From: Candidatus Levyibacteriota bacterium
GTDB lineage: Bacteria > Patescibacteriota > Microgenomatia > Levybacterales > UBA12049
Assembly: GCA_016186625.1 (NCBI GenBank)
Contig: JACPLG010000005.1
Location: 36,954 to 100,953 of the forward strand
Direction of reading: 5' to 3'
Length of the DNA: 64,000 nucleotides
Shown here: positions 1 through 58,662 of the stretch, one piece after another
Layout of the letters: the number at the start of each line of letters is the position of its first letter
Numbering within the stretch: the stretch's first letter is position 1
Notes under the pieces: model-generated
What the model saw: only the letters and a program-made list of their open reading frames with translations
Database searches by the model: none
Told to the model about the DNA's origin: nothing
Program-made: the position numbers and the translations under genes

Positions 1-410
1 CAACCCATAGAGCCAATATCCTTTCAGCAAATTATAATGACGTCGGCTTTTCTGTGAAATCGGGAAGACTTGCGGGAGAGCAAACTTTTTTAGTAGTTCA
101 GGAACTTGGCAGTAAGAGGATTTTGCCTGCAGTAAATCGGAGTCCGTCTCAAAATCAAAAAAGTGTCGCAGCTAAAAGAGTTTTAGGCTTTGAGATTGGT
201 TCTTATCTTCCTATCAAGCCTAATTTTTCAAAATCTTCAGAGCTTGTTTTACTGATACTTCTCTTGTTTATAGCGGTTTTTTTAATAGATCTGATTATAA
301 TTGAGAGGAGAAAAATTACAAGGTTTGTCGGACATAATCTTGATCATGCAATATTTTTGTCAATAATAATTTTGATTATATCCATATTCAATACAGGAAT
401 GGTGCTTTAA
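1..410 (+). CDS. hypothetical protein, probably 5'-truncated by the window edge; C-terminal hydrophobic segment
   Basis: The frame of the listed ORF 54..410 stays open back to base 3 with no stop. The hydrophobic C-terminus LVLLILLLFIAVFLIDLIII is visible in the translation. Confidence 0.3.
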   Translation, partial: THRANILSANYNDVGFSVKSGRLAGEQTFLVVQELGSKRILPAVNRSPSQNQKSVAAKRVLGFEIGSYLPIKPNFSKSSELVLLILLLFIAVFLIDLIIIERRKITRFVGHNLDHAIFLSIIILIISIFNTGMVL

Positions 411-673
411 TGAAAAAAAACCATACAACATATTATATTCTATTAGCATCAATACTCTTGGCTGGTTTTATATTAATTTTAAGTGCTCATCCAGACAGAG
501 GGCTTCAGATGAGCCTAGTTATTGGACTAAGCTTTGCTTATGTACTTGTTGGGATACTTCATCATTTGATAAACCATGATTTAGTGGCTAAAATTGTGAT
601 AGAATACGTTCTTGTTGCAAGTCTTGGTATTGCAACAGCTTTTTTTGTATTCAAAGGAGGATTTGGTTTTTAA
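410..673 (+). CDS. small integral membrane protein (2-3 TM helices), unknown function
   Basis: 87-aa ORF with strongly hydrophobic segments. Its start codon overlaps the stop of the previous ORF (ATGA-style). Confidence 0.4.
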   Translation: MKKNHTTYYILLASILLAGFILILSAHPDRGLQMSLVIGLSFAYVLVGILHHLINHDLVAKIVIEYVLVASLGIATAFFVFKGGFGF

Positions 674-718
674 TAACCTGTTTGGCAAGTTCAGGAGAAT
701 GTTAAGTTTAATCAAAAT

Positions 719-1435
719 ATGAAAGGTGTAATTTTAGCAGGGGGATTAGGTACTCGCCTTTATCCCTTAACGCATGTAACTAACAAGCATTTGCTTCCGG
801 TTTATGATAAACCGATGATTTTTTATCCTATAGAAACATTGGTTAAAGCAGGCATAAAAGACATACTGATAGTTACAAGTGGTCCCCACGTGGGACATTT
901 CTTAGGAATTCTAAAAAACGGAAATGAACTGGGGGTAGATCATCTTGAATATGCCTATCAGGAAAAACCTGACGGAGGAATTGCAGATGCGCTGTCTTTG
1001 GCAGAAAGCTTTGCAGATGAGGAGCCAATAACCGTGATTTTAGGAGATAACACAACGGATGCAGACATAAGTGAAGAAGTGACCAGCTTCAAAGACGGAG
1101 CATTGGCTTTTCTTAAAGAGGTAAGAGATCCTGAGAGATTTGGGGTTGCGTTTTTCGACGAAAATAAAAATATAACAGGAATAGAAGAAAAGCCTAAAAA
1201 TCCAAAAAGCAATATGGTAGTGACCGGAGTTTATATTTACGACGGGAAAGTGTTTGGGCACATCAGAAGTTTAAAACCCTCCGATAGAGGTCAGCTTGAG
1301 GTAACTGATTTAAATAATATTTATATTAAGAATGGAGAATTTAAATGGGCAGAATTGGATGGGTTTTGGAGCGATGCGGGTACATTTGACAGTCTTTTTG
1401 CCGCAAGTAAATACTGGGCAGAAAAAAATAAATGA
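719..1435 (+). CDS. rmlA: glucose-1-phosphate thymidylyltransferase (short-form RmlA-like sugar nucleotidyltransferase)
   Basis: N-terminal MKGVILAGGLGTRLYPLT...LLPVYDKPMIFYP matches the RmlA signature closely. DPERFGV, EEKP and VTGVYIYD motifs are present. Its stop overlaps the rmlB start. Confidence 0.85.
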   Translation: MKGVILAGGLGTRLYPLTHVTNKHLLPVYDKPMIFYPIETLVKAGIKDILIVTSGPHVGHFLGILKNGNELGVDHLEYAYQEKPDGGIADALSLAESFADEEPITVILGDNTTDADISEEVTSFKDGALAFLKEVRDPERFGVAFFDENKNITGIEEKPKNPKSNMVVTGVYIYDGKVFGHIRSLKPSDRGQLEVTDLNNIYIKNGEFKWAELDGFWSDAGTFDSLFAASKYWAEKNK

Positions 1436-5337: not shown

Positions 5338-6312
5338 ATGCCAAAAGCCCTTATTACTGGAATTACAGGTCAAGACGGGCCTTACCTTGCAGAATTTCTT
5401 TTGTCAAAAGGTTACCATGTTTATGGTCTGGTTAGAAGGCTAAGTACTCCAAATCTAGAGAATATCCATCATATAAGAGACCAGGTTGAACTTTTATCTG
5501 GCGATCTTCTGGATCAGGGATCAATAACTGACGCAATTTCAGAGACTGAACCGGATGAAGTCTACAATTTGGCTGCACAATCTTTTGTTAAGGCTTCTTG
5601 GGAACAGCCGGTTCTTACTGGGGAGTTCACTGCGCTGGGAGTAACGCGTGTACTTGAAGCAATAAGAACGGTAAATCCTAAAATTAAGTTTTATCAAGCA
5701 TCTTCATCTGAGATGTTTGGTAAAGTTACAGAAAGCCCGCAAAAGGAAACAACCAGATTTCACCCAAGGAGTCCGTATGGGGTTGCAAAAGTCTACGGTC
5801 ACTACACCACAGTTAATTACCGAGAAAGTTATGGAATCTTCGCTTGCTCGGGGATTCTCTTTAATCACGAATCTCCTCGGAGAGGCATAGAATTTGTAAC
5901 AAGAAAGATAAGTAATGGTGTTGCCAGAATTAAGTTAGGGAAACAGAAAAAATTAGAGTTGGGAAGTCTTGAGCCAAAAAGAGACTGGGGATTTTCAGGA
6001 GATTATGTTGAGGCAATGTGGCTTATGCTTGCCCAAGACAAGCCTGATGATTATGTTGTAGCAACTGGTGAAAACCATTCAGTCAGAGAATTTGTAGAGC
6101 TTGCTTTTGAAGCAGTAGAAATAAAAAATTGGGAGGACTTTGTAATTTCAAATGTTTCGCATCACCTAAGACCGGCAGAAGTAGATTATCTGGTTGGAGA
6201 TGCAAGTAAGGCCAGAAAAGTTCTGGGATGGAAGCCAAAGACCACTTTTAGGCAGTTGGTGGAGATGATGGTAAAAGCTGATTTAGAGCTTGAAAAGAGG
6301 AATAAGACATAA
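5338..6312 (+). CDS. gmd: GDP-mannose 4,6-dehydratase
   Basis: [34 protein letters not shown] is the canonical Gmd N-terminus. SSSEMFG and [10 protein letters not shown] are also present. Confidence 0.9.
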
Positions 6313-21132: not shown

Positions 21133-22896
21133 ATGAAAAAGTGGGATTTACTAAATAAAAAATCATCTCTTCGACAAACTCAGGACAAGAAAATAAAATC
21201 TAAAAAATTGGATACGGATAAATTGGTTCGAATCCTCCTTAAAAATCGAGGGATTAAAACAAAAAAAGAAGCCCAAGAGTTTTTGAGCCTAAAACTGGAA
21301 AGTTTGGATATTAATAAACTTGGGATAGACAAAAAGGACTTGAATAAAACTTTAAAAAGAATAAAAACCGCAATTGAGAAAAAAGAGCAAATAATTATTT
21401 TTGGCGACTATGATGCGGATGGGATATGTGGCACTGCAATTCTCTGGGAGACTCTGCATAGTCTTGGGGCCAATGTGTTGCCTTATATTCCCAACAGGAT
21501 TGAGGAAGGATACGGTTTATCCCTTGCGGGAATATCAAATTTAAAAAATAAAATATCAAATATAAAATTGGTGATAACAGTGGACAATGGGATTGTGGCA
21601 AATGACGCTGTTGAGTTTGCAAAAAGTTTAGACATCGATGTAATCATCACCGACCACCACGTACCTTCTAAAACTTTGCCCAAAGCTTTTGCAATTGTAC
21701 ACTCAACAAAAGTCTGCGGAGCGGGTGTGGCCTGGTTTCTCTCTCAAGAGATCGTTCGGGGTCCTGTCTCGCTTCACCCCCGCCCGACATCCTCATCCGC
21801 CAGCGGGCGGACTGCGGGTGCTCGTCGGGGGTCCCCCGCGCTCACCACCCCTCACCCCGATCACCTTGATCTCGTAGCGATTGCAACAGTTGCGGATTTA
21901 GTCCCGCTTGTTGGCCCAAATAGAATTCTTGTTAAGTTTGGGCTAGAAGAGCTTAAAAATACGAAAAGAGTTGGTTTGCAAGCGCTATATGATGAGGCAA
22001 GAATTGAAAGAGATAATATAGATACTTATACGATTGGACATATTGTTGCTCCAAGATTAAATGCTATGGGCAGGCTTGAAGAGGCAATGGACAGTCTTAG
22101 GCTTATTTGCACAAGAGACAAAAAAAGGGCAAATGTTTTGGCTAAGAAATTAGGAGAGATAAATAGAGTAAGACAGCGCCTCACAATTGATACTTTTATC
22201 CATGCCAGAGAGAGAGCCAACAAAAATACTCTCAAAAAACTACTTTTTGTTTATCATGAGTCTTATGAGCAAGGTGTGATTGGGTTGGTGGCTGGGAGAC
22301 TAACAGAGGAATATTATCTCCCATCAATAGTACTTTCAAAGGGAGAAAAGTTTAGTAAAGCTTCTGCTCGTTCTGTCTCGGGGCTAAACATAATAGAGTT
22401 TATAAGGGAAGCCGGAGAGTTTCTGGTTGATGCCGGGGGACACCCTATGGCTGCGGGTTTTACTATTGAGACAACAAAAATTCCACTTCTTGAAAAGAAA
22501 TTCGAAGAGCTTTCCAGGAGATTAATTTCAGACGACCATTTGGTCAGAAGACTAAAAATTGATTGCGAATTGCCTGTTTCTTATTTAACACTTGAATTAT
22601 TCGATTCGATATCGAAATTAGAACCATTTGGCATGAAAAACCCAACACCTGTTTTTTTAAGCAAAGGTTTGGAAATCACTGATATGCGATTAGTGGGAAT
22701 AGACGCAAAACATCTTAAATTAAAAATAAAAGATCAAATCTCAAATCTAACCATTGATGGGATTATTTTTAATTATGATAGTTCGATTGGTTTAAAGATC
22801 GGGGATAAAGTAGATGTTGTTTATTCAATAGAGATGAATGAATGGAACGGAAACAAGAAATTAGAACTTAAGATAAAAGATATTAAAAGTTCCTAG
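21133..22896 (+). CDS. recJ: single-stranded-DNA-specific exonuclease RecJ (DHH/DHHA1)
   Basis: IIFGDYDADGICGTAIL, VITDHH, LDLVAIATVADLVPL and a GGHPMAAG DHHA1 motif. Contains an in-frame GC-rich insert (see the repeat at 21755-21866). Confidence 0.85.
   Translation: MKKWDLLNKKSSLRQTQDKKIKSKKLDTDKLVRILLKNRGIKTKKEAQEFLSLKLESLDINKLGIDKKDLNKTLKRIKTAIEKKEQIIIFGDYDADGICGTAILWETLHSLGANVLPYIPNRIEEGYGLSLAGISNLKNKISNIKLVITVDNGIVANDAVEFAKSLDIDVIITDHHVPSKTLPKAFAIVHSTKVCGAGVAWFLSQEIVRGPVSLHPRPTSSSASGRTAGARRGSPALTTPHPDHLDLVAIATVADLVPLVGPNRILVKFGLEELKNTKRVGLQALYDEARIERDNIDTYTIGHIVAPRLNAMGRLEEAMDSLRLICTRDKKRANVLAKKLGEINRVRQRLTIDTFIHARERANKNTLKKLLFVYHESYEQGVIGLVAGRLTEEYYLPSIVLSKGEKFSKASARSVSGLNIIEFIREAGEFLVDAGGHPMAAGFTIETTKIPLLEKKFEELSRRLISDDHLVRRLKIDCELPVSYLTLELFDSISKLEPFGMKNPTPVFLSKGLEITDMRLVGIDAKHLKLKIKDQISNLTIDGIIFNYDSSIGLKIGDKVDVVYSIEMNEWNGNKKLELKIKDIKSS
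21755..21866 (+). repeat. GC-rich (~70 % GC) ~110-bp element inserted in-frame in recJ; homologous to an intergenic element at 28104-28203
   Basis: Begins TTCGGGGTCCTG, identical for 12 nt to the element at 28104, and ends ...CACCCCTCACC, matching CACCCCTCAAC in the other copy. Has an internal CCGCCCG/CGGGCGG inverted repeat. Encodes the low-complexity peptide RGPVSLHPRPTSSSASGRTAGARRGSPALTTPHPDH. Confidence 0.65.
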
Positions 22897-24307
22897 CTGT
22901 TGGAACAGTTTCTGGTTCTAAACCTAGGGCTCTTGACCATACTTTTATCTTTTCATACTGCTCAGGTCTGGATAAAGATTTTAACTGAGCCTGTCTTCTG
23001 TTTGTTTTTAAAGTTATATCAAATTCTCCTAGTTTCCCTTTTTCTCTAAGAATTGCAGCAAGACGAGTGAAGAGACGAGTAGAATCCGCTATTAACCGTT
23101 TGTCAATTTTTCTATATATCCCCTTTGCTAGTTTAATTTTATTGTCAACCGTCAAGTTGGGAGATTCAAAGGATGCATCTAGATCATGTTGAGTCTCTAA
23201 ATTTCCCGTAGTCATTTCTGTCCAAAGCCTACTACTTATTCCGAAAGTTTTTAGCAGAAGTTCTTCAGTCATTGATCTAATTTCTTGCATCTTAACCACT
23301 CTTGTTATCATAGGTCCTGCTGTAGCATCCAGAATCAATAAGTGCGCTTTTTCATCTGCAATTTCTGAGGGAAGCCCTTGATCTATAGTTAGTTGTTTCC
23401 ATTGGGTAGTATAAGCAAGAGCTCTCTGATTTATAGAATTGGATAAATCGGCATACAATTTTTCTGCCAGAGCTAGTTGTTGTGTGTGGTTAGCACTAGC
23501 CATTTCAAATGCTGTTCTCATTGCTTCAATATTAATCCCATCAGGATTAAGATCTTGCCAAAGCCTAAGGTAAATTGGGTAATTTGAAATCAATAAATCT
23601 TCTCTTTGGGTTCTTAATGATCTTAATTTTTTTATTTTATCTTCTCTTCGAGCAGGCTTAAATTCCCTAGTAGCTGCAAGGCTCTCTTTTTCTACCAATT
23701 CTTGAGTAATTCCGGCATCTCCTTTTAAAGCTGCAATCGTGACAAGATCAGCATCAAATCTGTCTTCTATTAAAAGCTCCAAATTTCTTTTCATATCGTC
23801 CACCATTCTTAGTCTAAGATCTGAAGATCGTCCTCTGTAGGCCTTATCAGCCCGAACCTTAAATCGTCTTATGTCTTGAGATGATATTCCTTCAATGCCA
23901 AGGACAGCTGCATATTCTCTTAAATATCCTTCAAATCTTCTTGATCCTCCAATCTCAGTTAGGATTCGTCTAGGAGAAATTCTTTCTAAAAGTCCCAATT
24001 CTCTATCTGTATCGGTAAGAATCTCTGCTCTCCTGGCGTTTTCTGCTGGATCAAAGGGATTATAAGGAAGGTGATGCTGCTCATAATCCTCTATTATAAT
24101 AGGAGGATCGAATAGGGCTGGGGTCCCGGTATTAACTGATTGGGATATGTCTGACATGGAGCCTGGAGGCTGAAATAATCTTTCCTGCCCAAAAATTTGT
24201 TGAGTATCTAATGAGGAGCTACCTACAGGAGCATCATCTGGGACTCGTTGTGGCCGCACTAAAGCTTCTTGGCCATCTGCATTTATAGGTTGTAGTCTTT
24301 CGCCCAT
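22883..24307 (-). CDS. hypothetical protein (474 aa), compositionally atypical
   Basis: L/R/E/A/Q-rich and K/I/N-poor, unlike neighbouring genes. GC is visibly higher than the flanks. I recognise no motif. Confidence 0.4.
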   Translation of the reverse strand: MGERLQPINADGQEALVRPQRVPDDAPVGSSSLDTQQIFGQERLFQPPGSMSDISQSVNTGTPALFDPPIIIEDYEQHHLPYNPFDPAENARRAEILTDTDRELGLLERISPRRILTEIGGSRRFEGYLREYAAVLGIEGISSQDIRRFKVRADKAYRGRSSDLRLRMVDDMKRNLELLIEDRFDADLVTIAALKGDAGITQELVEKESLAATREFKPARREDKIKKLRSLRTQREDLLISNYPIYLRLWQDLNPDGINIEAMRTAFEMASANHTQQLALAEKLYADLSNSINQRALAYTTQWKQLTIDQGLPSEIADEKAHLLILDATAGPMITRVVKMQEIRSMTEELLLKTFGISSRLWTEMTTGNLETQHDLDASFESPNLTVDNKIKLAKGIYRKIDKRLIADSTRLFTRLAAILREKGKLGEFDITLKTNRRQAQLKSLSRPEQYEKIKVWSRALGLEPETVPTARNF

Positions 24308-24439
24308 ATATTTTCTGGATTTATCTTAAATATTTTGATCCTTTTTGAATTGTTTTGTCAACTAGGAAAGATTACAGATTGTGCTTAATTTTAACATATC
24401 TTATAGTAGTTAGTCAAGTAAAATTGAGATAACCTTAGA

Positions 24440-24739
24440 TTAATTCGAGGTTGGTTTAGGAGAAATCGGAGGAGCTGGAGCAATAACTTGAGGGGGAGTT
24501 CCTAATGGTTCAAATCTAGCTCTTGCAGCTATAGCAACTCTTGCTAAAACAACAGTTTTACCATCTATTTCACCCGTAACGCTTGCAGGAAAAGATTCCC
24601 CTGGTCGAACTTCCACATAAGCGCCTTGTGCCTGCTCCATAACTCCTACAGGATGGAATCCAAGGTCATCTAGCGTTAACTGTTGTCTTTCCGATTCTCC
24701 CTTCATACAATAATTAGACTCAAAGTATATTTTAACCAA
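24440..24739 (-). CDS. hypothetical small protein with proline-rich C-terminus
   Basis: 99-aa ORF upstream of and co-oriented with the 474-aa hypothetical. A/V/P-rich. The start may be the internal Met (MKGESER). Confidence 0.3.
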   Translation of the reverse strand: MVKIYFESNYCMKGESERQQLTLDDLGFHPVGVMEQAQGAYVEVRPGESFPASVTGEIDGKTVVLARVAIAARARFEPLGTPPQVIAPAPPISPKPTSN

Positions 24740-24780
24740 TACTTCTTGTCAAGGCAAGAACAAAAATATACAATACGTTT

Positions 24781-26124
24781 ATGCAAAGGACGCTTGCAAA
24801 AGACACTCTGGACAAGATCGGCGAGGAAGTTTTACTCCGGGGCTGGGTTTTAACAGTAAGATCCCACGGCAAAATTGCCTTTTTTGACCTGCGAGACAGA
24901 AGCGGGACACTTCAGATTGCAGCTTTTGATCCCAAACAAGTTCAAAACGTAAACTCTCTTTCTCAGCAGGATGCAGTTGAGGTTGTGGGAAAAGTTAAGA
25001 AAAGAGAAGGGAAATTTGTTAATCCAAATACTCCTTTGGGAACAGTTGAGATTGAGGCATCAAAAGTTTCCATAGTCGCAAAAGCAAAGGAACTTCCATT
25101 TGACATGGGAGGAAAAGACCTTCTCTTGGAACTGCCCACACTTTTTGATCACCGCTCACTTGCTCTAAAACACCCAAAAATTGCCAAGATATTTAAAGTC
25201 CAGGCCGCTCTTTCCTCGGAATTTCGAAAAGCCGCTCAAGAGCTTGATTGTGTGGAAATTTTTGTTCCAACTATTGCCAAAGGAGCTACAGAAGGAGGAG
25301 CCGAGGTTTTCAAAGTGGATTATTACGGAAGTCAAGCTTTCTTGACCCAAAGCCCGCAGCTTTACAAGCAAATTATGGTGGGTGTATATGAGCGGGTATG
25401 GACAATTGCCAAGGCTTATAGAGCAGAGCCATCAGTTACAACAAGGCATTTGTCAGAGGCAACTCAAATGGATATTGAAATAGGATTTATTGAGAATTTC
25501 GAAGAGCTCTTAGACGCTTTAGAGTTCGTAGGAACAACAATGATAAAGAACGCCTCGGAAAAGAATAAAGATATACTTTCAGAGTTTGGTATTGAGGCGC
25601 CACTGGTTCCTACCAAAGTTCCGCGCCTGACTCTTAGAGAAGCGCAAGAAATTGTTTCAAAACGAACAGGGCGTGATCTTTCAAAAGAATTAGATTTAAA
25701 TCCAGAAGATGAGAAGGAAATTTGGCTGTGGGCAAAAGAGGAACATAAATCTGATTTTGTGACCATTACTCATTTTCCCACTAAAAAAAGAGCTTTTTAC
25801 ACAATGCCAGACCCCCAGGATCCCCAGTACAGCCTTTCTTATGACTTACTGTTTAAAGGACTGGAAATTCTTTCGGGAAGCCAGCGAATCCATAAGCTTG
25901 ATGAGTTAACCAAGCGAATGAAGGAAAAAGGAGTTGACCCAGGCAGTTTTGGCATGTATCTTGCGGCTTTTTTATATGGGATGCCACCTGAGGGCGGTTT
26001 TTCTTTTGGACTGGAACGGGTAACAATGAAGCTTTTAGAGCTATCTAATGTGCGGGAAGCTTCGCTTTTCCCCAGAGACATGGAGCGTGTAGATGAGAGG
26101 CTTTCCGGAAATCAAAATAAATAA
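24781..26124 (+). CDS. aspS: class-II aspartate--tRNA ligase, archaeal/short type (an Asn-specific enzyme cannot be excluded)
   Basis: N-terminal OB anticodon-binding domain. Class II motif 2 region (FRAE) and motif 3 (GGFSFGLERVTM...FPRD). ~447 aa. Confidence 0.7.
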   Translation: MQRTLAKDTLDKIGEEVLLRGWVLTVRSHGKIAFFDLRDRSGTLQIAAFDPKQVQNVNSLSQQDAVEVVGKVKKREGKFVNPNTPLGTVEIEASKVSIVAKAKELPFDMGGKDLLLELPTLFDHRSLALKHPKIAKIFKVQAALSSEFRKAAQELDCVEIFVPTIAKGATEGGAEVFKVDYYGSQAFLTQSPQLYKQIMVGVYERVWTIAKAYRAEPSVTTRHLSEATQMDIEIGFIENFEELLDALEFVGTTMIKNASEKNKDILSEFGIEAPLVPTKVPRLTLREAQEIVSKRTGRDLSKELDLNPEDEKEIWLWAKEEHKSDFVTITHFPTKKRAFYTMPDPQDPQYSLSYDLLFKGLEILSGSQRIHKLDELTKRMKEKGVDPGSFGMYLAAFLYGMPPEGGFSFGLERVTMKLLELSNVREASLFPRDMERVDERLSGNQNK

Positions 26125-32443: not shown

Positions 32444-32716
32444 TATGAAAATAATAATTTTTGGCAAAAGTAGTGACTTAGAGGATCTTTTAATAATTAT
32501 TGCCTATATCTTGATCCTTATTCTAATAGCTGCTTTAATTTGGATTTTGATTAGCCCGTTCCTTGCAGTTTTAGTCTCAATTCTTGTCTCATATCTTTTT
32601 TATCTTCGGAAAATCATTGGCAGAAAATAGTCTAAAACTGGATTTATTAGCCTCAATAAAAAAATTTGGGCACTTTACGCTTACTCAGAAAAAACAAATT
32701 TGGTATAGTTACACAT

Positions 32717-33901
32717 ATGTTAAAAATCAATGAGCGGTCGCTTGCTCTTCACAAAAAACATCAGGGGAAGATTGCAACTGTTCCCATAGTTCCCATAAAA
32801 ACCAAAGAAGATCTATCACTTGCCTATACTCCGGGTGTTGCTGCGGCAAGCAGTCTGATTGCCAAAAATCCTATGCTTTCTTATGACTATACGTGGAGGG
32901 GGCGGGCTGTTGCTGTGGTGTCTGACGGCTCGGCGGTGTTGGGACTGGGAAACATAGGCCCTGAAGCGGCACTTCCCGTGATGGAGGGCAAGGCGCTGCT
33001 GCTTAAGGAATTTGGCGGGGTGGACGGCGTGCCTCTAGTTATAAACACTCAGGACGCCTCGGAGATTGTCCGGTTTGTTACCCATATTGCTCCGTCTTTT
33101 TCCGGCATTCTTTTGGAAGATATCAGTGCGCCCCGGTGCTTTCAGATAGAAGAAGAACTCTTAGGAATCGGGATACCGGTCTTTCATGATGATCAGCACG
33201 GGTCAGCGATTGCGGTAAGAGCGGCTCTTAAGAATGCGGCGAAGGTAGTGGGAAAGGAGTATGGTAATCTTCGGGTAGTGATTGTCGGCGCGGGAGCGGC
33301 AGGGCTTGCCACCGCCAAGATGCTTCTTGGCTTAACCTGTCAAAGTGATTTTTGTGAGATTATACCGGGAGGGCTACGGGTAAAAGATGCCATCATTGTC
33401 GATAGGGCGGGGGCCCTCTTTCCCGGAAGAGCTGATCAAAATATATATAAGCAGGGATTAGCCAGCGTGTCCAACATCGACCGCAAAAGTGGGACACTTG
33501 CCGAGGTTATTCAAGGCGCAGATGCGCTGATCGGAGTTTCCGGGCCAAACAATATTACGCCTGAGAATATACGACGCATGGCTCCTCACCCAATCGTATT
33601 TGCCATGGCCAACCCCGTACCCGAGATTATGCCCGATGAGGCCAGACGAGCAGGGGCGGCAGTAGTTGCAACAGGAAGGAGCGACGTTCCTAACCAAATC
33701 AATAACGTCCTGGTATTTCCCGGCGTTTTTCGGGCTGTTAAGGAGGGAAGGTTAAAAACTATTACACCGGAGATGAAACTGGCCGCATCAGACGCGTTGG
33801 CAGGATTAGTAACAAAGCCTACAGAAGATCACATTATCCCCGATCCGTTTTTTCCGAGGCTTGCAGAGACCATCGCCCATGCGATGCTAAAAAAGGCATA
33901 A
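32717..33901 (+). CDS. NAD(P)-dependent malic enzyme (short form, no PTA domain); markedly GC-rich relative to its surroundings
   Basis: LAYTPGVAAAS, VVSDGSAVLGLGNIGPEAALPVMEGKALL and VVIVGAGAAGLA motifs. The likely start is the ATG at 32717 (MLKINERSLALHKKHQGKI). Confidence 0.85.
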   Translation: MLKINERSLALHKKHQGKIATVPIVPIKTKEDLSLAYTPGVAAASSLIAKNPMLSYDYTWRGRAVAVVSDGSAVLGLGNIGPEAALPVMEGKALLLKEFGGVDGVPLVINTQDASEIVRFVTHIAPSFSGILLEDISAPRCFQIEEELLGIGIPVFHDDQHGSAIAVRAALKNAAKVVGKEYGNLRVVIVGAGAAGLATAKMLLGLTCQSDFCEIIPGGLRVKDAIIVDRAGALFPGRADQNIYKQGLASVSNIDRKSGTLAEVIQGADALIGVSGPNNITPENIRRMAPHPIVFAMANPVPEIMPDEARRAGAAVVATGRSDVPNQINNVLVFPGVFRAVKEGRLKTITPEMKLAASDALAGLVTKPTEDHIIPDPFFPRLAETIAHAMLKKA

Positions 33902-33981: not shown

Positions 33982-33985
33982 CAGC

Positions 33986-34054
33986 TGCTGGACTTGGATT
34001 CGAACCAAGATGAGCGGATTCAGAGTCCGCTATCCTACCATTAGATGATCCAGC
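33986..34054 (-). tRNA. tRNA-Gln (anticodon CUG)
   Basis: Minus-strand sequence GCTGGAT...GCGGA-CTCTGAA-TCCGC...CTTGG-TTCGAAT-CCAAG-TCCAGC-A. The acceptor stem pairs, the T-loop is canonical, and the anticodon loop CU-CUG-AA has U33 and A37. The D-arm is short, so the ends are +/- 2 nt. Confidence 0.7.
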
Positions 34055-34124
34055 AAGGCGTACTAATTTTATCTCATTGAGGCTAATAAATCCAGTTTAA
34101 ACCTACTTACTTCCAAAAATATTT

Positions 34125-35879: not shown

Positions 35880-37052
35880 ATGAACTTAAGAGATTACGGA
35901 TTAGCTTCGGATAGACGAACAGTTTTAGAAAAAGAACTTAAGCTTACTCTTCCAAATATTGGCTCGTTTACCTTGGACGAAAAAATTGCAAGTTCCAGAA
36001 ATTGCGAAAACATGATTGGAGTAGCACAAGTGCCAATTGGGATTGCAGGACCGTTAAAAGTTCAAAGTTCAATCCATTCGGCAAGCTCAGGACAAGCGTT
36101 CAAAGTTCAAAGTTATTATCTGCCTTTGGCGACGACAGAGGGGGCGTTGGTGGCATCGGTTAATAGAGGATGTAAAGCAATAACAGAATCTGGAGGGGCT
36201 GTCTCATATGCGTATCGCGTTGGACAAACAAGAGGACCTGTCTTTTCAGTTAAAAACCTGGAAGAACAGAAGAAAGTTTATGACTGGATAAAAAAGAATG
36301 AAGCAAAACTAGGAAAAGTTGCAGAATCTAACTCTCAGCATTTAAAACTTTTAAGAATAAAAGTTCGGGGACTGTCAAATTACTTGTTTGTTCGATTTTA
36401 TTTTAATACGGAGGATGCCATGGGTATGAATATGGTAACAATTGCAACCCAGAAAGCGTCAGAATTAATTGAAAAAGAAACAGGAGCAAGACTTATTTCT
36501 GTTGCAGGGAATTTTGATATAGATAAAAAACCATCCTGGCTTAATTTTATAAACAATCGCGGCTTTAAAGTCTGGTCTGAGGTGGTTCTAACAAAAAAAG
36601 TTCTCAAAGATGTTCTAAAAACTAATGCTGACAAATTTTTTGAAGTATGGCTTTCCAAATGTATGATCGGATCTGCAATGTCAGGTTCGTTAGGTTTTAA
36701 CGCTCAATATGCAAATATAATTGCAGCGCTTTTTATAGCAACAGGTCAGGACCCAGCCCATGTTGCGGAGGCAAGTATGGGGATTACAACAGCAAAAGTT
36801 TTACCAAACGGAAATCTTTCAGTCTCAATTTATTTGCCTGACTTAAGCATAGGAACAGTTGGTGGGGGAACTGGACTAGCAACGCAGCAGGAAGCGCTTT
36901 CGATATTGGGTGTTGCCGGCGCAGGAAATGTCGAAAAATTCGCTGAAATTGTTGGAGCAGCAGTTTTGGCAGGAGAAATTTCATTGATATCAAGTTTGTC
37001 CGAAGGAAGTTTGGCGATTGCTCATGAGAAACTAGGGAGAGGACTGAGATAA
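35880..37052 (+). CDS. hydroxymethylglutaryl-CoA reductase, class I (archaeal/eukaryotic type)
   Basis: EDAMGMNMV motif, LATTEGALVAS, GTVGGGT and a C-terminal HxxLG. Confidence 0.85.
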   Translation: MNLRDYGLASDRRTVLEKELKLTLPNIGSFTLDEKIASSRNCENMIGVAQVPIGIAGPLKVQSSIHSASSGQAFKVQSYYLPLATTEGALVASVNRGCKAITESGGAVSYAYRVGQTRGPVFSVKNLEEQKKVYDWIKKNEAKLGKVAESNSQHLKLLRIKVRGLSNYLFVRFYFNTEDAMGMNMVTIATQKASELIEKETGARLISVAGNFDIDKKPSWLNFINNRGFKVWSEVVLTKKVLKDVLKTNADKFFEVWLSKCMIGSAMSGSLGFNAQYANIIAALFIATGQDPAHVAEASMGITTAKVLPNGNLSVSIYLPDLSIGTVGGGTGLATQQEALSILGVAGAGNVEKFAEIVGAAVLAGEISLISSLSEGSLAIAHEKLGRGLR

Positions 37053-37088
37053 TTTGAAATTCGAAATTTAAAATTGAAAATTTAAAGT

Positions 37089-38123
37089 ATGGCTGGAATT
37101 GTTAGTTACGGAGCATACATCCCTAAATATAGAATTAAACTTTCTGAAATTGTCAAGGTCTGGCAAAAAGATGAAGAAGAAATAATAGGTGGCCTTAAAG
37201 TCTTGGAAAAAAGTGTCCCGGGAGTTGATGAGGATGCAGTGACAATTGGAATTGAGGCAGGAAAAAGAGCTCTTGAGATGGCTGGACTCGCTCCTTCGAA
37301 AATTGGATGTGTTTACTTTGGATCCGAAAGCCATCCATATGCTGTTAATCCTTCATCTTCAATTGCGGCAGAATATCTGGGCATTGGACCGAATTATTTT
37401 GCTGCAGATTTAGAGTTTGCCTGTAAAGCTGCAACAGCCGGGATGCAAGTTGCCAATGCTTTGATTGAAAGCAATAAGATAAAATACGGACTCGCAATTG
37501 GCGCGGACACTGCCCAGGGCAAACCACATGATGCACTCGAATATACTGCAGCAGGCGGTGGTGTTGCTATTATTTTGGGAAAAGGGAGAGAAGTAATTGC
37601 CGAAATTTTAGATACTTCTTCTGTTACTTCGGATACCCCTGATTTTTGGAGAAGAGACGGAATGCGCTATCCTTCACATTTTGGCCGCTTCACTGGAGAA
37701 CCAGCATACTTTATGCATATTGTTTCTGAGGGAAAGAAACTTCTTGAAAAAAGTAAAATTAAACCACAGGACTTTGCCTACGCCGTATTTCATATGCCAA
37801 ACGGAAAGTTTCCTAGAGTTGCTGCTAAGAAATTAGGTTTCACTCCAGAACAAATAGCGCCGGGCCTGGTAGTTAATAGAATCGGCAATCCTTATTCAGC
37901 CTCTTCCCTAATGGGACTGGCCAAAGTTCTGGATATTGCCAAGCCGGGCCAGCGAATATTTTTTGTTTCATATGGATCAGGAGCAGGCTCTGACGGGTTT
38001 ATTTTTGAGACAACAAAAAATATAGTTTCAAAACAAAAAAAGACTGTACCGGTTGAGGTACAAATTGAAGACAAAATATACATTGACTACCCAACATATC
38101 TCAAGTTTACCCACACACTATGA
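37089..38123 (+). CDS. hydroxymethylglutaryl-CoA synthase, archaeal type
   Basis: MAGIVSYGAYIPKYRIKLSEI N-terminus, catalytic Cys block (FACKAATAG), and a ~345 aa thiolase-fold size. Confidence 0.85.
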   Translation: MAGIVSYGAYIPKYRIKLSEIVKVWQKDEEEIIGGLKVLEKSVPGVDEDAVTIGIEAGKRALEMAGLAPSKIGCVYFGSESHPYAVNPSSSIAAEYLGIGPNYFAADLEFACKAATAGMQVANALIESNKIKYGLAIGADTAQGKPHDALEYTAAGGGVAIILGKGREVIAEILDTSSVTSDTPDFWRRDGMRYPSHFGRFTGEPAYFMHIVSEGKKLLEKSKIKPQDFAYAVFHMPNGKFPRVAAKKLGFTPEQIAPGLVVNRIGNPYSASSLMGLAKVLDIAKPGQRIFFVSYGSGAGSDGFIFETTKNIVSKQKKTVPVEVQIEDKIYIDYPTYLKFTHTL

Positions 38124-39259
38124 TACACATATTGGGCGTTGCAACCACTGAATTTGGAGAACTTTGGAAGAAGTCTCCAAGAGCTTTAGCAAAACAGGCT
38201 GCGGAGGGAGCGCTGGAAGACGCAGGGCTAAAAATTAGTGATATTGATGCTTTGTTTGTAGGAAACATGCTTGCGGGAATTCTTGGAAATCAGGCAAATC
38301 TTGGTTCTTTATTTGCAGAAGAGCTAGGTTTGAGCGTCCCTGCGATAAGAGTTGAAGGGGCATGTGCTTCAGGTGGATTAGCACTTCATAGCGGCGTTAA
38401 TGGTATTTTATCAGGTCAATACAAAACCGTGCTGGCTTTGGGAGTTGAGAAGATGACAGACTCAGGACAGGATGAAGTTACAACAGGACTTATGGCCGCA
38501 GGGTCTGACAGTGAAAGAATGGCGGGCGCAACTTTTCCGGGGATTTATGCCCTTATGGCCCAGGCGTATTTGGAAGAATTTGGAATCTCTGAAGAAACCT
38601 TGGCCGGAGTTTCTGTTAAAAACCATTACCATGGGAGTCTTAACGACAAAGCGCAATTCCGCCGCGTGGTGACAGTTGAAGATGTTATGAGTAGCGGGCG
38701 AATTGCAGACCCACTGAAGCTTTTAGACTGTTCTCCTATTTCCGATGGGGCATCGGCAGTAGTGATAAGCTCGGAAAATTTAAGAAAAAGAAAACCCGTT
38801 TATGTCAGCGCCTCAGAAGTTGCCACAGACACTCTTGCTCTTCACGATAGAAAATCTTTCACGTCTTTGTCATCGGTTGTGAGAGCGTCCAAAAATGCTT
38901 ATAAAAAAGCAGGAATTAGCCCGTCGGACGTTGACGTTTCGGAAATTCATGATTGTTTTTCAATTGCCGAGGCAATTGCCGTTGAGGATTTAGGTTTTTC
39001 AAAAAGAGGAGAGGGTGCCAAAGATATTGCAACGGGAAAAATGACTTTAGGCAAGGGTAAAGTTATTACAAATCCCTCAGGTGGGCTTAAAGCATGCGGG
39101 CACCCCGTGGGAGCAACAGGGATTAAGCAGATTGTTGAGATTACCCAGCAGCTAAGAGGTGAGGCAGGAGGCAGGCAAGTAAAAAGAGCAAAAATAGGAT
39201 TAACTCATAATGTGGGAGGATCAGGAGCAGTAGCAGTAATCCACATTCTCAAAAATTGA
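38120..39259 (+). CDS. acetyl-CoA acetyltransferase (archaeal-type thiolase that partners HMG-CoA synthase)
   Basis: GACASGGLALH active-site Cys region and a C-terminal GHPVGATG motif. Start overlaps the HMGS stop. Confidence 0.85.
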   Translation: MIHILGVATTEFGELWKKSPRALAKQAAEGALEDAGLKISDIDALFVGNMLAGILGNQANLGSLFAEELGLSVPAIRVEGACASGGLALHSGVNGILSGQYKTVLALGVEKMTDSGQDEVTTGLMAAGSDSERMAGATFPGIYALMAQAYLEEFGISEETLAGVSVKNHYHGSLNDKAQFRRVVTVEDVMSSGRIADPLKLLDCSPISDGASAVVISSENLRKRKPVYVSASEVATDTLALHDRKSFTSLSSVVRASKNAYKKAGISPSDVDVSEIHDCFSIAEAIAVEDLGFSKRGEGAKDIATGKMTLGKGKVITNPSGGLKACGHPVGATGIKQIVEITQQLRGEAGGRQVKRAKIGLTHNVGGSGAVAVIHILKN

Positions 39260-39260
39260 C

Positions 39261-39563
39261 ATGATTACAACACCGGTAAAACTTTGGAGAAGACAAAAAG
39301 AAGTAGCCAGACATTTAGGACGGGAAGGTAAAATAATTTCTTGGACAATTATTAGAGTTCCTCCAAAAGCCTTTCTCAATGAAACACCCTATCCTGTTGT
39401 GATAGTTAAGATGGAAAATGGAGAAAAAATGATTGGACAGCTTGTAGACTGGCAAGATGAAGATTTGGCAGTTGGCAGAAAAGTCGTGGCAGTACTAAGA
39501 CGCTTGTTTTCAGGCGATAGCGAGAGTATAATTGCCTACTATATTAAGTTTAGGCCTATATGA
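39261..39563 (+). CDS. DUF35 OB-fold/zinc-ribbon-like scaffold protein of the thiolase-HMGS complex
   Basis: ~100-aa protein directly after the thiolase, as in archaeal thiolase/HMGS/DUF35 operons. Has the KMENGEKMIGQLVDW OB-like segment. Confidence 0.65.
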   Translation: MITTPVKLWRRQKEVARHLGREGKIISWTIIRVPPKAFLNETPYPVVIVKMENGEKMIGQLVDWQDEDLAVGRKVVAVLRRLFSGDSESIIAYYIKFRPI

Positions 39564-40615
39564 AGAGTATAAGAATCTCTGCCCCCGGGAAGCTACATTT
39601 ACTTGGAGAACATGTTGTTGTCTATAACAAGCCGGCAATTCTTGCAGCGGTTGATAAAAGATGTTTTGTAGAAATAACTCCTAGAAAAGATAAGAAAATT
39701 AAAGTATTGTCTCGAAATTACAATACTTCGACACTACGTCGTATCGAAGAAATTGTCGAAAAGTTTGAGAAAGCCCAAAAAGACTGGGAAACTTATAATG
39801 AAAATAATGACGTTTCTCTTTTGAAATCAATTACCAAGGACCCACTGGATTATCCTCAAGCAATAGTCGGACAATTTTTAAATTATTATAAAATAAAGAA
39901 AGTTGAAGGATTTGATTTAGTTATTGATTCACAGATTCCTGTTGGGTCCGGAATGGGATCATCTGGTGCTTTGTCTGTTTCAATAATCGGAGCATTGTCT
40001 TTGTTTGCGGGTAAACCTTTTAATAAAAAGATAATTAACGAAATTGCATTTTTGGCAGAGCAAAAGAAACATGGCAAGCCTTCAGGGGGAGATAATTCAA
40101 CAAGCTGCTATGGAAAATTAGTCTGGTTTAAAAAAGACGAGGGGATAAAACCATTAGGTTTTGGAGTTTCAGAAAAGATTTCAAAGAATTTCTATGTTAT
40201 AAACACAGGCACGCCTAAAGAGACAACTGGGGAGATGGTGAGTCGAGTTCGCGATCTATTCTCAAAACGAGAATTATTTGTCCAGGAGATTCTGGATAGA
40301 CAGGAAGAACTGGTAAAAGATTTGAAATTGGCTCTTGAAAAAAATATTCCGAGACAAGTTCCAGGTATTATAAAAAACGGAGAAAGAAATCTCCAAAAAT
40401 TAGGAGTTGTCTCGCCTTTTGTTCGGGGTTTAATCAGAAAAATAGAGGAAAGCGGTGGAGCTGCTAAAATCTGCGGAGGGGGAGGAAAAACCAAAGCAAC
40501 AGGAATAATTTTGATTTATCACACTGACTTGCAAAATCTTAAAAAAGTGCTACAATCCCACAATCTAAATCCAACTCAGCTTACATTGGGAGTTGAAGGA
40601 TTAAGAAAAGAATAA
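39560..40615 (+). CDS. mvk: mevalonate kinase (GHMP kinase)
   Basis: SAPGKLHLLGEHVVVYNKPAI N-terminus and GHMP motif PVGSGMGSSGALSV. Confidence 0.8.
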   Translation: MKSIRISAPGKLHLLGEHVVVYNKPAILAAVDKRCFVEITPRKDKKIKVLSRNYNTSTLRRIEEIVEKFEKAQKDWETYNENNDVSLLKSITKDPLDYPQAIVGQFLNYYKIKKVEGFDLVIDSQIPVGSGMGSSGALSVSIIGALSLFAGKPFNKKIINEIAFLAEQKKHGKPSGGDNSTSCYGKLVWFKKDEGIKPLGFGVSEKISKNFYVINTGTPKETTGEMVSRVRDLFSKRELFVQEILDRQEELVKDLKLALEKNIPRQVPGIIKNGERNLQKLGVVSPFVRGLIRKIEESGGAAKICGGGGKTKATGIILIYHTDLQNLKKVLQSHNLNPTQLTLGVEGLRKE

Positions 40616-41716: not shown

Positions 41717-42808
41717 ATGAGCGCTCCTGTTGAAAGAAGCCAAAGAACTTTACAGAGAAATATGGATCTGTTGATGCGATATCACGTAGCACAATCAGGC
41801 GGAGAAGTTTCAGAAGCGCATAGCCCAACGCATCTCAGAACTACTGCTAGACTTACTGAATTAGGAGGAATTTTGTATGGATTCTCTCCAAGAGAATTTG
41901 ATCTAGCTCACTTTGCAGGAGATTTCCATGATCTGGTTAGGTCACCAAGCGAAGACCCGAGTCTAAAAGATGAGGAAGTTAGCGCCAGACAAGCCGTGCT
42001 AATAATGGAGATGATGAGCGATAGAGGAGTTTTTGCCACTGATTCTCAGGAAAGAGAAGCAGTTAGATTTGCTATTAAAAATCAGGGAAAAGCTCCAATT
42101 TCTTTCCTGGACGGTTCCACAAGAGATGAGGTACCGCAGGATTTGGGTGATAGAATCCATGCAGCACTGTTTATTGCAGATAAAATTGAAGCAAATGGAG
42201 CAAGAGTAATCGCCAGAAGATCGAGTTTTGTAGCGGGAGATAGGCTTCATAATCCAGATGGTGATTGGCAAAAATTTGGTTTTGTTCCGGATAAAGACGA
42301 GGCATTAGTTGTGGCCATTGAGAGTTTGCTCAGACTTGGAATAATAAATCCTCAATATATTTATCCTGGAAAAATAAGGAGAATTATAGACCCATTGTAT
42401 GAGGTTCAAAGAGAATTTGTTAAAGGAGTATTTAAAGCAAAAGGACTTAAAGTAGGAGATGCGGCAAAGCTACTTTTAGAAAGAAAAAGGGATGATGGTA
42501 AAAACATGCTAGAAGCGAGGAAATTATCTGCTCCTGACAACGTTGAGGAGCTTGTCGCTTTTTTGCAAGAAAAAACAGGAATTACAGATGATGCAATTGA
42601 ATCAACAACGGAAGATGTTGCCAATTCGGCTATAGAAACAGTACTTTATTTCAGCAGAGACTATAAAGCAGATTTGGATAGACTGATAGCTGATTGGCTA
42701 CCAAGAGGAGAATCGGCTGAGCGATGGCAACGTCAAATGGTGGAGTATGCAGAAGGAAACTGGTTTAAGCAGGCAAGAGAACAAATTTCTTCTGATACAA
42801 TAAGTTAA
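41717..42808 (+). CDS. HD-domain metal-dependent phosphohydrolase-like protein with a C-terminal extension
   Basis: The His...HD...D pattern (HSPTHL ... HFAGDFHDLVR ... D) is visible in the first 150 aa. The remainder has no recognisable motif. Confidence 0.5.
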   Translation: MSAPVERSQRTLQRNMDLLMRYHVAQSGGEVSEAHSPTHLRTTARLTELGGILYGFSPREFDLAHFAGDFHDLVRSPSEDPSLKDEEVSARQAVLIMEMMSDRGVFATDSQEREAVRFAIKNQGKAPISFLDGSTRDEVPQDLGDRIHAALFIADKIEANGARVIARRSSFVAGDRLHNPDGDWQKFGFVPDKDEALVVAIESLLRLGIINPQYIYPGKIRRIIDPLYEVQREFVKGVFKAKGLKVGDAAKLLLERKRDDGKNMLEARKLSAPDNVEELVAFLQEKTGITDDAIESTTEDVANSAIETVLYFSRDYKADLDRLIADWLPRGESAERWQRQMVEYAEGNWFKQAREQISSDTIS

Positions 42809-58421: not shown

Positions 58422-58495
58422 GGCCCCATCGTCTAGTGGTTTAGGATATCTGGTTCTCATCCAGAAGATCAGGGGTTCGAATCCCCTTGGGGCTA
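58422..58495 (+). tRNA. tRNA-Glu (anticodon CUC)
   Basis: GGCCCCA-TC-GTC-TAGTGGTTTAG-GAT-A-TCTGG-TTCTCAT-CCAGA-AGATC-AGGGG-TTCGAAT-CCCCT-TGGGGCT-A, 74 nt. Close to E. coli tRNA-Glu. No encoded CCA. Confidence 0.75.
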
Positions 58496-58499
58496 CAGA

Positions 58500-58614
58500 G
58501 GCCAAGCGGGCAGGTCTAGTGGTTCAGGACATCGGGTTCCCCGCCAGCAACGCTTTGCGTAGCAATTTTCGGGCTGGTCATCCCGAAAATCACGGGTTCG
58601 ACTCCCGTTGGCGG
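58500..58614 (+). ncRNA. tRNA-like element of unresolved structure (canonical D-arm and T-arm/3' acceptor; ~35-40 extra nt in the anticodon region; no complementary 5' acceptor strand found)
   Basis: GTCTAGTGGTTCAGGAC duplicates the tRNA-Glu D-arm. ACGGG-TTCGACT-CCCGT-TGGCGGT-A is a canonical T-arm plus acceptor 3' strand. TCGGG...CCCGA could form an anticodon stem bracketing a 44-nt insert. Confidence 0.3.
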
Positions 58615-58662
58615 TACGCCTCGTCAAACTCTTCAGGGTGAGCTTCAGATTTAACTCAGCAC

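Follow-up and report, generated by a model that had tools for sequence, protein, structure and literature searches.

Between recJ and aspS, in a 64,000-nucleotide stretch of a Candidatus Levyibacteriota genome (contig JACPLG010000005.1, positions 36,954 to 100,953; the whole stretch is called the window here), lies a minus-strand gene at 22883..24307 that encodes a protein of 474 amino acids (aa) and that we call X. Upstream of it and in the same orientation is a second open reading frame (ORF), called the small gene. The X protein is identical to NCBI HYW63_01625, a hypothetical protein from a Candidatus Levybacteria metagenome-assembled genome. On balance we think it probable that X is a soluble, non-enzymatic, all-alpha repeat protein with a disordered arm which serves as a scaffold or adaptor, that it sits in a slot that is fixed in its clade, that it evolves fast, and that its allele has been exchanged. 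X is a genuine gene, as is evident from purifying selection, from 21 family clusters, and from a confidently predicted AlphaFold2 (AF2) core. The initial annotation, made from the sequence of the window alone, had described X and the small gene as a horizontally acquired two-gene module of foreign composition, possibly an effector, toxin, or surface-interaction system. The two co-oriented minus-strand ORFs are real and their housekeeping flanks were confirmed by Pfam: recJ (21133-22896, plus strand) has the DHH, DHHA1, and RecJ_OB domains and aspS (24781-26124, plus strand) has tRNA-synt_2 and the anticodon OB fold.

When 5.8 billion proteins were searched with a word-indexed method only five relatives of X were found, with identities of 55-65%. 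Exhaustive searching of 1.84 billion cluster representatives with a profile gave, at E <= 1e-3, 21 clusters, defined at 50% identity, and the window X was the top match (E = 2.6e-244). The members of this family are 230-587 aa long, are mostly 18-28% identical to X, and have a common core of ~300 residues that spans profile positions about 127-447. Genomic context was obtained for 13 loci, namely, the window and 12 others that include the most remote members (P0022, E = 6e-6). In all 13 of them X was found beside recJ and/or aspS, and this holds also for the members at 18-28% identity (P0012, P0013, P0014, P0017, P0021, and P0022). Wherever the contig extends, X is convergent with recJ and divergent from aspS, and on the long contigs the full block gltX-hyp347-dacA-aspS / X / recJ-CCA enzyme-ABC transporter is retained as it is in the window. 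X is a positional orthologue throughout one Levybacteria subclade and not an island. No paralogue of X was found in the 64-kb window. As far as these searches reach, the family appears to be small, unannotated, and restricted to that one subclade of the Levybacteria, which belong to the Candidate Phyla Radiation (CPR), and it has no detectable characterised relative. Searches of X and the small protein against Pfam, NCBIfam, PHROGs, and PADLOC gave no domain match, the one weak exception being the small protein against PHROG 2660 (E = 0.09), and when all 21 family members were compared with Pfam the hits were isolated single ones, all with E > 0.002. Sequence-profile searches of the PDB with the A1 and A2 queries gave nothing significant, the best match being staphylocoagulase with E = 0.15. 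No relatives were found in the viral, phage, and plasmid collections IMG/VR, INPHARED, and PLSDB or in viral contigs and JGI metagenome contigs scanned with A1, and a literature search gave nothing relevant.

In neighbour-joining trees of RecJ the X-bearing loci group together with two loci that lack X, L069 and L072, the combined clade having a bootstrap of 49%. From this grouping of the X-bearing loci it would therefore follow that the X family arose, or became recognisable, once in its subclade. L069 and L072 are sister to the X group in one RecJ tree and nested inside it in another, and X may have been replaced in these two. The N-terminal part of the protein differs within the family: P0010 and P0013 have over residues ~1-250 an extra, partly beta-rich module of about 250 residues, and in L010 this module is encoded separately by a 177-aa gene (189-722, plus strand; E = 2e-10) that lies directly upstream of the X homologue, a pattern that points to gene fission or fusion within the family.

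The structure of X was predicted by AF2 from a six-sequence alignment (pTM, the predicted template-modelling score, was 0.63), and the prediction has a confident helical core and a disordered arm, residues 1-82 and 99-120 being disordered. The N-terminal arm (residues 1-85; 24053..24307, minus strand) is acidic and rich in Pro, Gln, and Ser, with a predicted local distance difference test score (pLDDT) of 23-33, a net charge of -8, and an isoelectric point (pI) of 4.2. No other part of the alignment is as variable, the proportion of nonsynonymous differences (pN) being 0.39-0.51 compared to 0.17-0.26 in the core. A short conserved motif, HHLPYNPFDPAENARRAEIL, occupies residues 77-98 (24014..24079, minus strand), with a helix predicted at 87-98. 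In six close homologues P87, N90, R93, A94, I96, and L97 of this motif are invariant and in the deep X family this conservation is absent. The all-alpha repeat core (residues 121-465; 22913..23947, minus strand) has 15 helices with pLDDT 80-95. With hhalign two repeat units were found in it, residues 199-310 (23378..23713, minus strand) and residues 311-422 (23042..23377, minus strand), and these align to each other over 109 columns with a probability of 97.5% and E = 8.4e-12. Within the units the sub-units of ~56 residues also match, B with D at 94.9% and C with E at 82.3%, weaker copies are present on both sides of the duplicated units, and each sub-unit starts with a turn of the type D/x-G-[ILM]-x-x-x-E after a long helix. 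These alignments indicate that the core of ~345 residues arose by the duplication, within the protein, of a unit of ~112 residues that consists of two ~56-residue sub-units.

Only G311, L351, and Q450 are invariant across the whole family, and D197, Y246, A317, and A394 are nearly so. Helix caps, turns, and core positions would fit these residues better than a catalytic site. The initial annotation had recognised no catalytic motif, and no invariant residues of a catalytic type were found. X has no Cys, about 30% charged residues, and a pI of 6.3. The net charge in the family, in which strongly acidic members are numerous, spans -27 to +8, a variability that would argue against a conserved nucleic-acid-binding surface on X. 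By Kyte-Doolittle analysis neither X nor the small protein has a hydrophobic segment fit for a signal peptide or a membrane anchor, the maximum 19-residue averages being 0.93 and 1.01, respectively. Foldseek searches of X against the PDB and BFVD gave nothing below E = 0.03, with template-modelling (TM) scores of about 0.1, and single sub-units matched generic three-helix bundles. The sigma-70 family, to which weak Foldseek hits pointed, was rejected because these hits had E >= 1.3 and TM about 0.12 and because X had no Pfam Sigma70 match at E <= 1; in fact, no Sigma70 domain of Pfam was found in any of the 21 family members.

X differs from its neighbours in the rate at which it changes. Between the window and L005 the identities were 57% for RecJ, 61% for AspRS, and 62% for the CCA enzyme, whereas that of X was about 18-24%. 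By this comparison the X protein would evolve several-fold faster than its housekeeping neighbours. The dN/dS of X against three close relatives was 0.27-0.36, and the N-terminal 85 codons were the least constrained. At positions where the amino acid is identical, the window X used the same codon as the X of L001, L002, and L003 in 60-68% of the cases while about 44-45% was expected as computed from codon usage, and this excess of shared codons runs uniformly along the gene. In the same genome pairs recJ, aspS, and dacA were near saturation, with 42-47% same codon and 40-42% expected. The identity at four-fold degenerate sites between the window and L001 was 59/96 for X and 39/124 for recJ (p = 1e-5), and between the window and L002 it was 60/99 for X and 97/236 for aspS and dacA together (p = 0.001). 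Between L001 and L003, on the other hand, X and recJ were equal in this respect (0.44 and 0.42, respectively), and in deep X pairs the synonymous sites were saturated; X is therefore without intrinsic synonymous constraint. Codon selection in a highly expressed X was considered as the cause of the low synonymous divergence and is unlikely, because the other low-GC3 genes of the window (GC3 being the GC content at third codon positions) are ordinary enzymes; the saturated deep pairs and the equal divergence of X and recJ between L001 and L003 oppose it further. The RecJ tree places L011 with L001 and L003 and excludes the window with a bootstrap of 74%. X gives a different grouping: the window, L001, L002, and L003 go together at 51-71% identity, the window X being 51-65% identical to that of L001-L003, and against each of these the X of L011 has an identity of about 20%. 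Most simply read, these data mean that the window lineage apparently exchanged its X allele, through homologous recombination, for that of a lineage near L001/L002. Such an exchange counts as horizontal only in the narrow sense of a transfer inside the clade and would therefore leave no compositional trace in X.

The amino acid composition of X is unusual. Among the 64 ORFs of the window X has the highest fraction of L+R+E+A+Q (0.426, the median being 0.319) and a low fraction of K+I+N (0.160, rank 55/64). The small ORF has the lowest K+I+N fraction of all (0.111) and its L+R+E+A+Q fraction is ordinary (rank 19/64). Thus, of the amino acid biases that had been ascribed to both proteins, the poverty in K, I, and N was found in both and the richness in L, R, E, A, and Q in X only. 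The higher GC that had been claimed for the pair was not found: the GC content of X is 0.387 (rank 28/64), next to a median of 0.385 for the window ORFs, and that of the small ORF, 0.428, equals that of aspS (0.427). The GC3 of X is 0.249 (rank 60/64, median 0.315) and that of the small ORF is 0.222. When synonymous codon choice was examined with a leave-one-out likelihood test against the rest of the window, the z values were +2.3 for X and +1.4 for the small gene, which means that both use the codons preferred in the window more than the average gene does. The malic-enzyme gene at 32666-33901 (plus strand; GC 0.50, GC3 0.48) served as the positive control in this test and is the sole true outlier in codon usage in the window, with z = -6.9; this gene, which adjoins a tRNA at 33985-34055 (minus strand), is a better candidate for horizontal acquisition than X and the small gene. 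Because the GC, GC3, and codon usage are all native, a nucleotide-level sign of foreign origin is absent from X and the small gene, and what is atypical is confined to their amino acids. The initial annotation had named conservation in the lineage together with normal codon usage as what would refute it, and X shows both; therefore, it was not recently imported. What is left of the proposed horizontal acquisition is the evidence for allele exchange within the clade and the variability of the slot in which X lies. Elsewhere in the window a 363-aa protein (41717-42808, plus strand) without a Pfam hit has L+R+E+A+Q of 0.394, K+I+N of 0.132, and low GC3; no relationship between it and X was found.

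The small ORF had been called at 24440-24739 on the minus strand as a 99-aa protein that starts with TTG. A near-consensus promoter of its own, TTGACA-17-TATACT, is predicted at 24724..24752 (minus strand; 11/12 matches in a consensus scan), and the TTG at 24739 stands upstream of the -10 box of this promoter. Because the -10 box falls downstream of that TTG, the start was assigned to the ATG at 24706, in agreement with the NCBI model (HYW63_01630, an identical hypothetical protein) and with the homologues of the small gene. The ORF is real and its coordinates are 24440..24706 (minus strand, 88 aa). The Pro-rich tail that had been noticed in its protein was confirmed as GTPPQVIAPAPPISPKPTSN; it follows an alpha/beta domain of ~65 residues. 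The AF2 model of the small protein, of moderate confidence (mean pLDDT 66), has four strands, a C-terminal helix, and then the disordered tail, and the protein is acidic (pI 5.2). Three copies of the small gene are known, in the window, L004, and L092; they are 57-71% identical, each lies between aspS and the X gene, and they are under purifying selection (pN 0.23; pS, the corresponding synonymous proportion, 0.49). The gene is thus present in three of the seven close loci; L001, L002, L003, and L093 lack it, as does every deep relative that retains X. What these loci lack is a cassette of ~330 bp that consists of the small gene's promoter and coding sequence. Around this cassette and around X no flanking repeats were found, only short ones at chance level. 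That the small protein is a split-off form of the N-terminal module of P0010 and P0013, which is also the separate gene of L010, was rejected with an hhalign probability of 0.2%. The small gene is an independent, facultative orphan and neither an obligate partner of X nor part of a conserved two-gene module; the pair is not such a module because the small gene is optional among X-bearing relatives and has its own predicted promoter.

Two promoter-like sites precede X itself, P1 at 24388..24417 (minus strand), which reads TTGACT-18-TAAAAT with a TG extension, and P2 at 24332..24361 (minus strand), which reads TTGACA-18-CAAAAT, each with 10/12 matches in the consensus scan. The sequence of P1 is kept in L001, L002, and L004, the TTGACA and the -10 region of P2 are conserved in relatives, and both sites are also kept in relatives without the small gene. 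No terminator was found between the small gene and X. At the other end the 3' ends of X and recJ overlap convergently by 14 nt, and the region at 22883..22906 contains a bidirectional terminator-like hairpin (22889-22906). An overlap of this kind, of 4-35 nt, is present in all relatives where the contig extends.

The slot between recJ and aspS was also examined in 80 species-representative loci of Levybacteria, Daviesbacteria, Curtissbacteria, and others that were fetched with an AspRS probe. In these loci the flanks CCA-recJ and aspS-dacA-hyp-gltX are conserved and the gap between recJ and aspS varies from 24 bp to about 5.8 kb. In the presence-absence comparison that had been proposed for this junction, X was found in 13/13 family loci and a member of its family in 0/80 of the other Microgenomates loci. 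The slot is hypervariable across these 80 Microgenomates and its occupant is stable within the X clade. Presence at the junction is patchy among close relatives for the small gene, and for X only when whole clades are compared. In the Daviesbacteria type the slot holds recognisable housekeeping genes, for acetolactate synthase, TyrRS, prephenate dehydratase, DAHP synthase, and RelA/SpoT. In the Levybacteria type it holds single, mutually unrelated orphans of 55-200 aa that are oriented as X is and abut the end of recJ. These orphans (L012-L090 and L069/L072) were considered as diverged or truncated forms of X and this was rejected, as nothing was found by a hidden Markov model (HMM) search with --max, by phmmer with every family member as query, by a sub-family HMM, or by hhalign against single repeat units. 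In two X-bearing relatives the neighbour itself differs: the AspRS at the conserved position in L001 (95-1414, minus strand) is only 36% identical to that of the window while RecJ is 58% identical, and in L094 (2656-4101, minus strand) the values are 30% and 55%, respectively, which suggests that at the same locus aspS was displaced by a different type of AspRS.

In Microgenomates that lack X the slot gene is preceded by an attenuator-like leader, which is found at L018 (5751-5879), L013 (5665-5793), L079 (5769-5897), and L090 (5774-5902), all on the minus strand, and at 15 further loci (L012, L014, L017, L021, L022, L027, L029, L033, L059, L060, L063, L064, L067, L080, and L088). The order of elements in it is a sigma-70-like promoter, an upstream ORF of 14-42 codons, hairpins, a U-run, and then the Shine-Dalgarno sequence and ATG. 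The 3' arm of the 5' hairpin, GGGAG[AG]UU, can pair instead with the 5' arm of the terminator hairpin, AAUCUCCC, so that the hairpins are mutually exclusive (GGGAG/CUCCC), and the z-scores for folding are -4 to -6.5. Against Rfam the leader matched no family at threshold, the best being a weak match to Phe_leader with E = 0.0025. No such leader is present in the window, and although it lies outside the window it is the most interesting by-product of this analysis. The closest lineages without X share another upstream motif, CTGTCAGATTNCTGTCAGGAA...GTCAAGC, that is followed by a small hairpin, a U-run, and their own short orphan ORFs (L072 at ~5830-5950, L076 at ~440-560, and L069 at ~5840-5930, all minus strand).

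How X might work is suggested by its architecture. X would be a soluble, non-enzymatic, all-alpha tandem-repeat protein whose disordered acidic arm carries a short motif ahead of about 345 residues of helices. Through its helical surfaces and N-terminal motif it would bind partners with which these parts co-evolve; X would then be a scaffold or adaptor with rapidly changing surfaces for binding, and it would be transcribed from its own tandem, predicted sigma-70-like promoters. Several points weigh against this. The role of a scaffold is suggested only by the architecture and the absence of catalytic signatures; six sequences went into the structure model, whose global arrangement is uncertain (pTM 0.63); all the promoters of X and the small gene are predicted as consensus matches only; the evidence for allele exchange comes from short metagenomic contigs with 80-160 four-fold sites per comparison; and in the RecJ trees the X-bearing group is weakly supported, with 49% for the clade that it forms with L069 and L072, and these two may nest inside it. 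The fast divergence, the synonymous and topological signs of allele replacement within the clade, and the restriction of X to one clade and to a hypervariable slot are also what one would expect of a factor in an arms race or in host interaction. Such a factor would leave the cell by non-classical export or injection, or would counter phages or host defences, under diversifying selection in an episymbiotic CPR bacterium. The N-terminal modules vary in form, being a disordered arm in the window, a module of ~250 aa in P0010 and P0013, and a separate gene in L010, and a disordered N-terminus could act as a non-classical secretion signal. Fast evolution and lineage restriction also speak in part for the interpretation in the initial annotation. 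However, X has no segment resembling a signal peptide or a membrane anchor and no hit in PADLOC, PHROG, or Pfam, and no toxin or defence domain; its neighbours are aspS, recJ, dacA, gltX, and the CCA enzyme and include no secretion, pilus, or defence gene; its dN/dS is well below 1 overall; and it has no relatives in viral or plasmid data. We therefore regard an arms-race role as possible but unlikely. An extension of it, that the slot is a cradle of genes with fast turnover, which in most Microgenomates lineages holds unrelated small orphans behind a translation-sensing leader-peptide attenuator, that in one Levybacteria subclade such a gene grew by internal duplication into X, and that X now evolves rapidly and is swapped between lineages because of an arms race of episymbiont and host or one related to phages, is a speculation that we put forward with considerable doubt.

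The place of X among aspS, gltX, the CCA-adding enzyme, YqeY, and recJ raises the question whether it is a helical-repeat factor for nucleic acids or translation that acts on tRNA, the ribosome, or intermediates of DNA repair. Helical repeats are commonly used to bind RNA, X stays linked to aspS and recJ throughout its family, and in related Microgenomates the slot gene lies behind a leader-peptide/terminator attenuator, which is a device that senses translation. But the net charge of -27 to +8 is not conserved and many members are acidic, there are no basic residues conserved across the family, core translation factors do not evolve so fast, and an orientation that is convergent with recJ and divergent from aspS means that X is not co-transcribed with them; such a factor is, in our judgement, rather improbable. 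A two-gene conflict module, toxin-antitoxin-like or for defence, in which the small acidic protein neutralises or regulates X, would agree with the position of the small gene directly upstream, co-oriented, and without a terminator in between, and with the fact that both are orphans. It is largely refuted and we consider it very improbable, given that four of the seven close relatives, and every deep relative with X, lack the small gene, that each gene has its own predicted promoter, that PADLOC and Pfam found no toxin or antitoxin domain, and that X has persisted alone for the whole history of the family. Finally, the atypical amino acid composition and the lack of annotation would be in keeping with recently acquired cargo of a foreign island or with spurious ORFs. 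Composition and synteny contradict this, and it can hardly be maintained: codon usage is native and GC3 low, positional orthologues are found down to about 20% identity, the borders have no repeats, integrase, or tRNA, with no tRNA within about 9 kb, and purifying selection and the confident fold show that the ORFs are real. The reading of X as a fast-changing binding scaffold is thus the one that we prefer.

Known systems resemble X in part. Tandem scaffolds of the spectrin type or of three-helix bundles (spectrin, PRC1) are, like X, all-alpha with tandem helical-bundle units of ~110 residues and without catalytic residues. When X was tested for spectrin-likeness, i.e. for three-helix repeats of ~106 residues, its tandem units of 112 residues were found, but spectrin and PRC1 have no sequence similarity to X and gave no significant match (in Foldseek with the whole protein, E = 0.63 for PRC1 and 3.5 for beta-spectrin, TM about 0.1), and the sub-unit pattern of X, a 15-residue plus a 36-residue helix that alternates with 15+21+11, differs from the A-B-C pattern of spectrin. 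The bacterial protein EzrA is a spectrin-type repeat scaffold with a membrane anchor, whereas X has no membrane anchor. Chromosomal hotspots are variable slots between core genes that collect accessory genes. The recJ-aspS slot is like them in its conserved flanks, variable gap, and unrelated occupants across 80 genomes, but it is unlike them in that it has no integrase, tRNA, direct repeats, or phage genes, in that its Levybacteria occupants are single small orphans in one fixed orientation, and in that it is stable in the X clade. With type II toxin-antitoxin and similar small-plus-large modules the locus shares a small acidic gene directly upstream of a larger co-oriented one, but here the two genes are not consistently paired, each has a predicted promoter to itself, and no toxin or antitoxin domain is present. 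Work by Meheust et al. from 2019 is said to describe taxonomically restricted orphan families of CPR/Patescibacteria. Like the X family, such families are small and have no homologue outside a narrow clade and no known domain. Unlike them, X was traced as an orthologue by its position as far as sequence similarity can be detected, and it has a confident predicted fold, an internal duplication, and a signature of exchange at synonymous sites.

Other features of the window were observed along the way. In recJ, at 21750-21865, there is an in-frame insert of ~110 bp with about 67-70% GC, compared to 38% GC in the genome; it encodes VRGPVSLHPRPTSSSASGRTAGARRGSPALTTPHPD between segments of the DHH domain and is single-copy in the window, and the RecJ of relatives is gapped or unalignable there. 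At 35880-40615 (plus strand) there is a mevalonate-pathway-like cluster with HMG-CoA reductase, an HMG-CoA synthase/KAS-III-like protein, thiolase, and a GHMP kinase. At 58506-58616 (plus strand) a tRNA model matched over 111 nt with 32.3 bits, next to a normal tRNA at 58422-58495, and this may be a tRNA that contains an intron or has a long variable arm.

The genomes of CPR/Patescibacteria are small and a large share of their genes has no known function. The locus of X is no discovery of function but a well-delimited orphan family, and a new family of helical-repeat proteins is defined by it. The genomic address of the family is fixed, so that orthologues can be tracked to about 20% identity, and this helps in the study of the divergence of orphan proteins. 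The locus also shows that a gene which looks foreign by eye can be clade-specific with native codon usage. Fast protein change and movement of alleles between related lineages are often tied to biotic interactions, and if an interaction role is true for X then it would be a handle on how Levybacteria deal with their hosts or phages.

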